Below are positions 1-955 of a stretch of 955 nucleotides of DNA, piece by piece (the first letter of the stretch is position 1; each line of letters opens with the position of its first letter). Under the pieces are notes generated by a model. It was not told the origin of the DNA. It searched no databases and saw nothing but the letters and a program-made list of their open reading frames with translations. Position numbers and translations under genes: made by a program. Source of the DNA: Escherichia coli (lineage in GTDB: Bacteria > Pseudomonadota > Gammaproteobacteria > Enterobacterales > Enterobacteriaceae). The stretch lies in the NCBI RefSeq assembly GCF_003334255.1, contig NZ_QOWU01000181.1; one strand, 5' to 3'.

Positions 1-43
1 TCCAGCCATCAGCCGAAAGGCACCCGCGCATAATCTACGATTT

Positions 44-60
44 TTGCCCTGCACGGGCAA
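44..60. other. Second short hairpin (6-bp stem TTGCCC/GGGCAA, 5-nt loop) next to the terminator; function unclear
   Basis: Seen in sequence: 44..49 TTGCCC and 55..60 GGGCAA are perfect reverse complements. The hairpin is flanked by a T-run on its 5' side and an A-run on its 3' side on the plus strand, so it lacks a trailing U-tract in either orientation. It may stabilise the 3' end or belong to terminator architecture shared with a convergent neighbour. Confidence 0.3.
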
Positions 61-86
61 CAAAAAACCCGCCATCACAGCGGGTT
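58..86 (-). terminator. Rho-independent (intrinsic) terminator of the CDS
   Basis: A perfect 7-bp stem (66..72 AACCCGC pairing with 80..86 GCGGGTT) encloses a 7-nt loop (73..79). On the minus-strand transcript this reads AACCCGC-UGUGAUG-GCGGGUU followed directly by UUUUGUUG, giving a GC-rich core and a U-tract. It begins about 25 nt after the TGA stop. Confidence 0.75.
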
Positions 87-108
87 ATGACATGTTGTCG
101 GATACAGA

Positions 109-840
109 TCAGAATTTCAGGCCAATACCTACAACAACCCCGCTCGTGCGCCAGTCACCAGATCCGGAGCTTTCATACGCGACATCCATAGCAACACTTT
201 CATTCAGGTTAAATTGTGCACCAGCAGCCCATGCAAGTGCTGTTTTTTTCGTACTGTTGCTTTCAGAAAATCCACCGGTACTGTTAATGTTGTCCTTAAT
301 TTTCAGGTCAGCGGTAACTTTAGCTACGCCCATACCAGCCATTGCATACACACTGAGGTATTCGTTAAACCGCCACGAAGGACCGGATAGTAGACTCCAG
401 TAATTAGCCCTGATATCAGTTCTCGCTGAAGCTGCCGGATTTTTAACCTCTCTGGATTCATCTCCTGGGTTAATATCAATAAATGCCTGCGCATTAGTCA
501 TAGAACGCGCCCATGTAAAAGATGTTATAACACCAATCTCATCCGTTATCTCATAACGATACCTGATGCTCATCCCCTGAGGAGATTTGCCTTTGCCATC
601 ATGCCCCCGGACAGAAGCATCTGCATATTCGCCTGAATTGAAGTAGTGTCTGTTTGTAAAACGGTTAAAAGTATCAAGATTATAAAGACTTAAATCCTTA
701 ACAAAATTGTTCAGTCCAGAGAGCTGAAGATGAGCGTATCCGAAAGAAACTGTACTGTCACCTTGTGCTGCACAGGCAGGGGCTGCTACAAAACTCATCA
801 CAAAAGTTGTGCACGCAAAAATAATTCTGGCATGTTTCAT
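109..840 (-). CDS. Ail/Lom/PagC/OmpX-family outer-membrane beta-barrel protein precursor (Lom-like, virulence-associated), 243 aa
   Basis: Seen in sequence: uninterrupted 244-codon minus-strand frame, ATG at 840..838, TGA at 111..109. N-terminus MKHARIIFACTTFVMSFVAAPACA|AQ is a textbook Sec signal peptide. The C-terminal block ...AYESSGSGDWRTSGVVVGIGLKF ends in Phe, the aromatic beta-signal of outer-membrane barrels. From memory, the blocks STVSFGYAHL, MSIRYRYEITDEIGVITSFTW, SGPSWRFNEY..YAMAGMG, ALAWAAGAQFNLNESVAMDVAYE and SGSGDWRT are colinear with lambda Lom (STLSAGYLH, INVKYRYEFTDTLGMVTSFSY, AGPSVRVNEW..YAMAG, SLAWGAGVQFNPTESVAIDIAYEGSGSGDWRT..GVGYKF). No database search was run. Confidence 0.85.
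   Translation of the reverse strand: MKHARIIFACTTFVMSFVAAPACAAQGDSTVSFGYAHLQLSGLNNFVKDLSLYNLDTFNRFTNRHYFNSGEYADASVRGHDGKGKSPQGMSIRYRYEITDEIGVITSFTWARSMTNAQAFIDINPGDESREVKNPAASARTDIRANYWSLLSGPSWRFNEYLSVYAMAGMGVAKVTADLKIKDNINSTGGFSESNSTKKTALAWAAGAQFNLNESVAMDVAYESSGSGDWRTSGVVVGIGLKF
769..840 (-). other. Predicted Sec signal peptide (residues 1-24), likely signal peptidase I cleavage after A-C-A (or one residue later after C-A-A)
   Basis: Positively charged n-region (K2, H3, R5), hydrophobic core IIFACTTFVMSFVAA, then A-x-A-type motif ACA followed by AQGD. Pro at -2 relative to the Cys argues against a lipobox, so a lipoprotein is unlikely. The corresponding lambda Lom segment, as I recall it, is ...AVSGAPAWA|SEH. 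Confidence 0.7.
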
Positions 841-851
841 TTTTAGACTTT

Positions 852-855
852 TCCT
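852..855 (-). promoter_or_regulatory. Candidate Shine-Dalgarno (AGGA) for the CDS
   Basis: Minus-strand sequence reads ...ATTATAGGAAAAGTCTAAAAATG. AGGA lies 11 nt upstream of the ATG, which is longer than the optimal spacer but the only purine-rich SD-like element present. Confidence 0.45.
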
Positions 856-955
856 ATAATAAAATAACCCCGTATTATCTAAGATGAATTTAGTTTTATT
901 ACTTAATATTCATACTGACAGGCATATCAGTCATATATTGATGAATTAATGACCA
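856..955 (-). promoter_or_regulatory. AT-rich 5' region presumed to carry the gene's own promoter; weak candidate -10 GATAAT (plus coordinates 874..879)
   Basis: The region is visibly far more AT-rich than the CDS. On the minus strand GATAAT matches TATAAT at 5 of 6 positions and sits about 34 nt upstream of the ATG. No convincing -35 hexamer at 16-18 bp spacing (best is GTAATA, 3 of 6). The exact promoter cannot be fixed from sequence alone. Confidence 0.35.

Follow-up and report, generated by a model that had tools for sequence, protein, structure and literature searches.

A 955-nucleotide stretch of Escherichia coli DNA (RefSeq assembly GCF_003334255.1, contig NZ_QOWU01000181.1; hereafter the window) carries a lom gene, and we consider it very probable that this is the lom of a temperate lambdoid phage of the 933W or Shiga toxin (Stx)-phage type (Sepvirinae-like), where it serves as an accessory, moron-type gene ending the tail/receptor-binding block. 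The window was 100% identical to Escherichia phage PhiR12_3 (PV340552.1, 48996-49950, minus strand), in which the gene is already annotated 'Lom', and all window features lie on the minus strand. Neither the gene nor its kind is new: this is a separate allele of a lom that has long been described in 933W, VT2-Sakai and Phi24B. The orthologues in these three phages were reportedly described between 1999 and 2012 as prophage accessory genes. An original prediction, made from the sequence alone and without giving a strand, had described positions 58-955 as a self-contained moron-like cassette; the lom unit does lie within those limits, but 927-955 on the minus strand belongs to the gene upstream. 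The features of the unit and its upstream border are as follows.

109..840, minus strand: lom, with its ATG at 840 and stop codon at 111..109, encoding the 243-aa precursor of an Ail/Lom-family outer-membrane barrel
841..926, minus strand: AT-rich spacer of 86 nt and 24% GC, the presumed lom promoter and 5' untranslated region (UTR)
59..86, minus strand: intrinsic terminator of lom, a stem-loop at 86..66 (AACCCGC-TGTGATG-GCGGGTT) followed by a T-run to about 59
927..955, minus strand: 3' end of a gene for a 205-aa protein (annotated coding sequence (CDS) in PV340552 and NZ_AP045173), of which the last 29 nt fall in the window, with stop codon TGA at 929..927

Lom is predicted to be an outer-membrane barrel of the Ail/Lom family

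The single outer-membrane protein gene that had been proposed proved to be one real gene, whose product matched Pfam Ail_Lom (PF06316) over residues 88-243 (E=9.8e-31) and PHROG 108, 'Lom outer membrane protein', over its full length (residues 1-243; E=5e-72). The sequence also matched the lambda Lom structure 9wso (E=5e-23), Yersinia pestis Ail and OmpX. Scores against two NCBIfam equivalog models fell below their cut-offs (88.2 vs 258 bits for Rck, NF011777; 68.1 vs 176 bits for OmpX, NF006917), and Lom is therefore a member of the Ail/Lom family, not an Rck or OmpX equivalog. Plus-strand open reading frames (ORFs) overlapping lom, one of 119 aa among others, were treated as antisense artefacts.

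An AlphaFold2 model built with 19 homologues (predicted local distance difference test (pLDDT) score 84.3) contained long antiparallel strands, and its best fold matches in the PDB were Ail (3qrc; template modelling (TM) score 0.82) and OmpX (1qj9; TM 0.80), both target-normalised. Lom is predicted from this model to form the 8-stranded antiparallel beta-barrel that defines the family. A signal peptide could be read by eye in the translation (MKHAR-IIFACTTFVMSFVAAP-ACA, about residues 1-24), and the C-terminus, ...GIGLKF, carries a C-terminal aromatic beta-signal; both are sequence features expected of an outer-membrane protein. Gene identity and fold class are in this way directly supported. 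The Ail, Rck, PagC and OmpX barrels share the fold, PF06316, the signal peptide and the C-terminal Phe, whereas Lom is phage-borne and about 60-90 residues longer in its extracellular loops.

Lambda Lom belongs to the same family (32% identity over 185 aa, E=3e-30). At 206 aa, it lacks an insertion of about 32 residues in loop 1 (after strand 1) and a second of about 13 residues in the next variable region, both of which the window Lom possesses. The loop-1 insertion was predicted to be helical at residues 43-67 (window 712..640; AlphaFold2 pLDDT about 85) and was specific to the long-Lom clade of Stx-type phages, being absent from lambda Lom, Ail and OmpX. Selection on Lom was purifying, the ratio of nonsynonymous to synonymous divergence (dN/dS) being 0.07-0.3 in coarse Nei-Gojobori windows and about 0.7 only in the signal peptide; at this resolution the loops gave no sign of diversifying selection. 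Neither Lom nor the two ORFs upstream of it matched any PADLOC defence model.

Two database entries for the family were also noted. PDB 9wso, for which no associated paper was found, comprises several chains, of which chain C is lambda 'Outer membrane protein lom'; the partner chains might reveal a binding partner of Lom. In E. coli 2012C-4502 (locus L014, 209-898), the Prokaryotic Genome Annotation Pipeline (PGAP) calls a lom orthologue of only 690 bp despite the usual ATG and an aligned leader; this short call may reflect a frameshift or an alternative choice of start.

The gene lies in a temperate phage and is accessory in E. coli

The PhiR12_3 record describes a complete lambdoid temperate phage with cI, cro, Q, the S/R/Rz lysis genes and an integrase, which the original prediction had proposed to look for. 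No stx gene is annotated in it, in which it differs from the Stx phages. The gene content around lom is of the type found in phages of the 933W/VT2-Sakai/Phi24B group (Sepvirinae), and all genes share one strand: from upstream to downstream come an N4-gp56-type capsid gene, tail fibre genes, a YadA-like adhesin gene, a gene for a 422-aa tail tip fibre, a 93-aa ORF, the 205-aa ORF, lom, a Hok/Gef gene, several hypothetical genes and an 8.4-kb gene for an LPD5-domain protein. The surrounding 4.6 kb recurs in about 198 records of Stx-type phages, among them VT2-Sakai, Phi24B, PA28 and Lys12581Vzw. The expectation that phage tail genes lie nearby was thus borne out by the tail tip fibre and tail fibre genes upstream, and the flanks on both sides consist of phage genes, not conserved housekeeping genes.

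Among complete E. coli genomes, 147 of 5426 contained a match to the window (156 matching places, all chromosomal), so that the distribution of lom is accessory, not core, as had been anticipated for island or lysogenic cargo. That the gene could instead be a chromosomal, non-phage housekeeping gene of the ompX/ail kind is already refuted, and we give the idea practically no credence: only the family resemblance to OmpX and Ail speaks for it, against which stand the identity of the window to a phage genome, its phage flanks, its presence in so few genomes and the wide shortfall from the OmpX and Rck equivalog cut-offs.

The lambda-like J-lom-stf arrangement that had been foreseen was rejected. 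Upstream of lom stand the 205-aa and 93-aa ORFs and the tail tip fibre gene, and downstream a hok/sok-type module and hypothetical genes, not stf. All that the locus has in common with J is the Phage_Tail_Tip domain of the tail tip fibre (Pfam, E=1e-10), also present in lambda J, to which the fibre shows weak local BLASTP similarity (E=6e-5 over 97 aa). Lambda lom, classically cited among the morons expressed from the prophage (PMC3594210, PMC7067206), likewise stands just after tail-tip/receptor-binding genes and has a similarly strong terminator, 27 nt past its stop. It differs in having J and stf as neighbours, in a hairpin with T-run between J and lom that has no counterpart upstream at the window locus, and in a spacer that is not AT-rich (52% GC).

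A conserved terminator follows lom

A well-formed terminator within about 25 nt of the stop codon had been predicted, and a terminator scan placed the start of a stem-loop, AACCCGCTGTGATGGCGGGTT, 22 nt past the lom stop. It comprises a 9-bp stem with 5 GC pairs and is followed by a T-run, with a hairpin free energy of -11.7 kcal/mol; the 76-nt region around it folded better than 198 of 200 shuffled sequences (z=-2.65). Hairpin and T-run were invariant in six aligned relatives whose lom CDSs differ by 20-45%, and the same element is present in Phi24B. The window contained one terminator-like site against 0.7 expected by chance, a count not above chance, and the case therefore rests on the quality, position and conservation of the site; its conservation may in part reflect that of the downstream hok module or DNA. 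Judged at the sequence level, lom has a terminator of its own. A weak match to the Rfam Trp_leader model at the 3' end of lom (23 bits, gathering threshold 41) was just this hairpin, and Rfam matches to BSnc120 and GlmZ were dismissed as noise.

Transcription entering or starting in the spacer would stop at this hairpin and T-run, which would also separate lom transcription from the toxin-antitoxin locus beyond and keep ordinary, not antiterminated, transcription out of it. Strong hairpins resembling intrinsic terminators were also seen on the sense strand of the surrounding locus (L001, in which window position 25 is 12054) at 11255..11236, after a 133-aa gene, and at 8528..8509, before the 8.4-kb LPD5 gene. 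The distal late operon thus appears to be punctuated into several terminator-bounded units, lom among them.

Spacer and lom diverge as a module between conserved neighbours

A moron has been defined as an obvious addition to a phage genome, with a GC content unlike that of its neighbours and with its own promoter and terminator (Cumby et al. 2012, PMC3594210). As regards location, lom lies between tail-region genes and the hok/sok module in a complete temperate phage. As regards composition, lom has a GC content of 44% (36.5% at third codon positions) and its spacer 24%, compared with 52% for the surrounding 26 kb of phage genes; the AT-rich 5' region and the atypical composition that had been predicted were both confirmed.

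Orthologues of the window lom occupy the same slot in 933W, VT2-Sakai and Phi24B (tail tip fibre, 93-aa, 205-aa, lom, hok/sok, 133-aa ORF). They belong to the same long Lom clade (about 244 aa), and their terminator and downstream leader are identical to those of the window, whereas the Sakai/Phi24B type differs in the protein (68-69% identity), in synonymous divergence (dS 0.84) and in the spacer, which is unalignable (43% identity). Among window-, Sakai- and Lys12581-type phages, the 5' part of lom was 54-70% identical and the 3' part 72-93%. Divergence in lom (dS 0.66-1.21, dN 0.17-0.22) exceeded that of the flanking genes (dS 0.05-0.59, dN at most 0.05). Between the window and Lys12581, dS was 0.09 for the 205-aa gene and 0.07 for the 133-aa gene, yet 0.66 for lom between them, and the 93-aa ORF was 96.5% identical. 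Because spacer and lom diverge so much faster than their flanks, we reasoned that they have been exchanged as a module of their own, independently of their neighbours. This mosaic signature fits a moron-type element, and the sequence comparisons place one putative recombination joint where the upstream gene ends and the other at the 3' end of lom or in its terminator. The spacer and lom would then be swapped between related phages as an allelic cassette. In a comparison of only three allele groups, no co-variation of the Lom allele with the neighbouring tail genes was seen.

Whether the module is in fact larger, with the 93-aa ORF, the 205-aa ORF and lom (about 1.7 kb) forming one horizontally acquired, co-expressed low-GC island, has to be considered, given that all three genes have 41-44% GC against about 52% around them, and that the 205-aa protein, which matches PHROG 425 ('membrane associated protein', E=9e-80), belongs to a family that PHROGs places under 'moron, auxiliary metabolic gene and host takeover'. 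We regard such an island as very improbable. The divergence of its parts is decoupled, as the Lys12581 comparison shows; the 93-aa/205-aa pair is packed 5-14 nt from its neighbours, which leaves no room for a promoter; and the pair, for which an association with the tail or with receptor binding has been argued (PMC12309495), occurs without lom, next to tail genes and with a different downstream flank, in the more distant virulent phages JenP2 and SECphi27. In JenP2 (locus L008, 3217-4115) and SECphi27 (locus L009, 3220-4115), the pair adjoins, and is convergent with, the gene for a big tail protein. At 42-60% identity, some 93 virulent siphoviruses (Nonagvirus and Warwickvirus among them) carry the pair, which has the look of a portable tail/receptor module even though PHROG uses the labels 'outer membrane protein' and 'moron' for it.

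The AT-rich spacer contains a conserved block next to the start codon

Turning to the spacer itself, the elements that might serve initiation of transcription and translation are as follows.

879..874 and 861..856, minus strand: candidate -10 hexamers GATAAT and TATTAT
855..852, minus strand: Shine-Dalgarno-like AGGA

Among alignable window-type relatives, which are 84-97% identical overall (84-88% in the set that gave the spacer figures), the ATG-proximal block of about 48 nt (ATCTTAGATAATAC...ATG) was conserved at 45 of 48 positions, compared with 63-71% for the distal spacer and 77-78% for the first 60 nt of the lom CDS. GATAAT was invariant, and TATTAT was replaced by TAGTAT in two sequences. 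Such conservation points to functional constraint, either on a weak -10 element plus 5' UTR or on the translation-initiation region only; it is no proof of a promoter. The Sakai/Phi24B and Lys12581 versions of the spacer could not be aligned with that of the window (35-47% identity). Candidates matching the sigma-70 consensus at 9 of 12 positions do occur in the Sakai/Phi24B-type spacer, at a level not above chance (p about 0.3).

In E. coli SW071611 (NZ_CM129855.1; locus L012, 1257-1954), an IS1 element interrupts the AT-rich spacer some 56 nt before the lom ATG (about window position 897). The insertion, present in three Galapagos wastewater isolates (H8-H10), spares the conserved proximal block and severs lom from the upstream late genes.

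Independent expression of lom and its alternatives

Several observations weigh against regarding lom as a self-contained moron. The own promoter that had been predicted failed to appear: in a scan of the spacer for the sigma-70 consensus, no sense-strand site reached 9 of 12 matches, and the best candidate under an approximate sigma-70 position weight matrix, GTAATA-17-GATAAT (8/12), scored 6.6, lower than all 300 of 300 dinucleotide-preserving shuffles (mean 10.3). The two upstream ORFs are also low in GC (41-42%), so that composition alone does not single out lom. Phage records numbered 188 with the 205-aa gene at >80% identity and 187 with Lom at 60% identity or more, and lom is therefore essentially fixed in this phage lineage; among the Sepvirinae sampled, no case was found in which lom was absent between the same flanks, and the gene would accordingly fall outside the strict sense of a moron as extra DNA relative to close relatives. 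It is moreover co-oriented with the late operon without a terminator upstream, and read-through alone could express it. Finally, the evidence for independent expression comes only from the orthologue in Phi24B, which carries the Sakai-type allele and a spacer identical to that of VT2-Sakai, unalignable with the spacer of the window.

That evidence is as follows. By reverse transcription quantitative PCR, strong expression of Phi24B lom was measured in lysogen cultures, and induction with norfloxacin left it unaltered (PMC3342100), and RNA-seq of Phi24B was reported to fully support an expression of lom uncoupled from induction (PMC4651098). For lambda lom, a strong late rise during infection is described in work cited in PMC11888456.

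Accordingly, lom might be simply a late-operon gene without a promoter of its own, expressed only by Q-antiterminated read-through from pR' and acting in the lytic cycle, for instance by blocking the adsorption of released virions to debris or infected cells; apparent expression in lysogens would then stem from the spontaneously induced fraction. An arrangement of this sort would be in keeping with the shared strand of lom and all late genes, the terminator scan, which detected none on the sense strand between the 205-aa gene and lom, the missing sigma-70 consensus and the fixation of lom like that of a core gene, as well as with the reported late rise of lambda Lom and the kin-protective, anti-adsorption role proposed for it (PMC11888456). 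We nevertheless hold it to be improbable. Phi24B lom RNA was high in the lysogen and flat on induction while terminase, capsid and Q transcripts rose (PMC3342100); neighbouring late genes are separated by gaps of 5-14 nt, whereas lom is preceded by an 86-nt spacer that includes a conserved proximal block; and a dedicated terminator directly follows the gene.

We retain the reading of lom as a moron-type accessory gene, in which both sources of transcripts would have a place. During lytic growth, Q-modified late transcription should read through lom, given the co-orientation with the late genes and the lack of a terminator upstream, and would pass the lom terminator as well, in agreement with the late rise cited for lambda lom. 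In the lysogen, a weak or non-consensus promoter within the conserved block of about 48 nt probably gives constitutive expression, as for the Phi24B orthologue. Lysogenic expression of the window allele, like its promoter and function, is what we infer, and the terminator, phage context, composition and modular divergence described above are directly supported.

Gene 15-type morons of HK97 (Juhala 2000; Cumby 2012) offer a parallel. Like lom, they are single tail-region genes with an atypical GC content and a terminator of their own, and for both, activity in the prophage state and a site of action at the cell envelope are presumed. HK97 gp15 is, however, absent from close relatives and thus truly extra DNA, whereas the window lom is fixed and varies by allele; and gp15 is an inner-membrane protein with demonstrated superinfection exclusion.

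Possible functions of Lom at the lysogen surface

Lom would be exported by the Sec pathway and inserted into the host outer membrane as an 8-stranded barrel of the Ail/Lom/OmpX type with long variable loops. Its likely function is modification of the lysogen surface, through adhesion or serum resistance (as claimed for lambda Lom and the Ail/Rck relatives), through blocking of adsorption, or both. Adhesion of lambda Lom to epithelial cells is described in work cited in PMC3594210 and PMC3342100. Overexpressed lambda Lom gave strong protection against lambda-vir, and an anti-adsorption or superinfection-exclusion role was proposed (PMC11888456). In Phi24B virion preparations, Lom was present at a low level and was judged a contaminant by the authors (bioRxiv 10.64898/2026.04.10.717836).

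It is conceivable, though in our estimation unlikely, that the long-Lom clade is primarily a phage-serving anti-adsorption or self-exclusion factor and not a host virulence factor. Lom, standing beside receptor-binding genes like cor/llp in T1- and T5-like phages, would then mask the phage receptor (BamA for Phi24B), which would explain both the fixation of lom and its swapping as deeply diverged cassettes between conserved joints. By analogy with lambda, the block to lambda-vir (PMC11888456) and the combination of fixation with hyper-divergence may be reconciled with such a role. Against it weigh the uncoupling of the Lom allele from the alleles of the 93-aa ORF and the tail tip, and a dN/dS that is purifying, not diversifying.

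A probable hok/sok-type module lies directly downstream

Beyond the lom terminator, the remaining window features, which lie outside the lom unit, are as follows.

26..60, minus strand: small hairpin at 60..44, overlapping the putative hok-type mRNA promoter (from fold and sequence reading)
60..32, minus strand: putative hok promoter, with -35 TTGCCC at 60..55, a 17-nt gap and -10 TAGATT at 37..32 (placed relative to the start of the Rfam match)
1..25, minus strand: first 25 nt of a hok/sok-type leader (GGGUGCCUUUCGG...), from a match to Rfam RF01794, with the Hok ORF beyond the window

The match to RF01794 (sok/hok leader) covered model positions 1-157 and began at L001 12054, with a score of 42 bits, below the gathering threshold of 59 (E=2e-7). 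Downstream, a 46-aa ORF matched the HokA NCBIfam model with 38 bits, below its cut-off of 89 (E=1e-9), and PGAP names a Hok/Gef family protein just downstream of lom. The module extends into L001 12054..11765, the putative 5' end of the mRNA being at about window position 25. It is annotated by PGAP in chromosomes, and in RefSeq as 'MokW-like host killing', and is unannotated in PV340552, VT2-Sakai and Phi24B.

A published 20-nt 'microRNA-size' RNA of Phi24B, 24B_1, with a precursor of about 80 nt (PMC4426718), was found to map to this module. It lies at 2693-2712 on the minus strand of HM208303 (locus L007), 140-159 nt downstream of the Phi24B lom stop, antisense within the Rfam sok/hok-leader match at 2637-2798. 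The link to hok/sok is made neither in PMC4426718 nor in a 2017 review by the same authors (PMC5488031). From its position, 24B_1 looks like a fragment of a Sok-like antitoxin RNA.

Other observations on the source phage and related records

No paper describing PhiR12_3 was found in the literature. Its interval from Q to the lysis genes (21162-27871; locus L011), which is the stx site of Stx phages, holds other cargo instead, including a second small 'host killer protein' ORF and a gene for a BcgI-alpha-like restriction enzyme. In PQ600364.1 (phiSTEC1589-Stx1c; locus L005, 299-4916), the annotation of the lom region looks wrong: the name 'virulence determinant Bor' is given to the lom orthologue and 'endopeptidase Rz' to the 205-aa gene, and the hypothetical genes downstream appear as 'portal protein'. 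Hok and the 133-aa gene are separated in this record by an insertion of about 1.6 kb, which is annotated as 'terminase large subunit' (1539-2750).

Implications

Many phage records carry no annotation for the hok/sok-type module whose putative promoter directly adjoins the lom terminator, and if 24B_1 is a Sok fragment, its deletion might derepress the Hok toxin. In every version of the lom spacer examined, that of lambda included, the promoter is unrecognisable from sequence, and it has apparently never been mapped; the isolates bearing IS1 in the spacer provide a natural test case of whether the proximal block alone drives lom expression. In this phage lineage, lom represents a fixed slot filled by deeply diverged alleles, a pattern compatible with a benefit to the phage as much as to the host.

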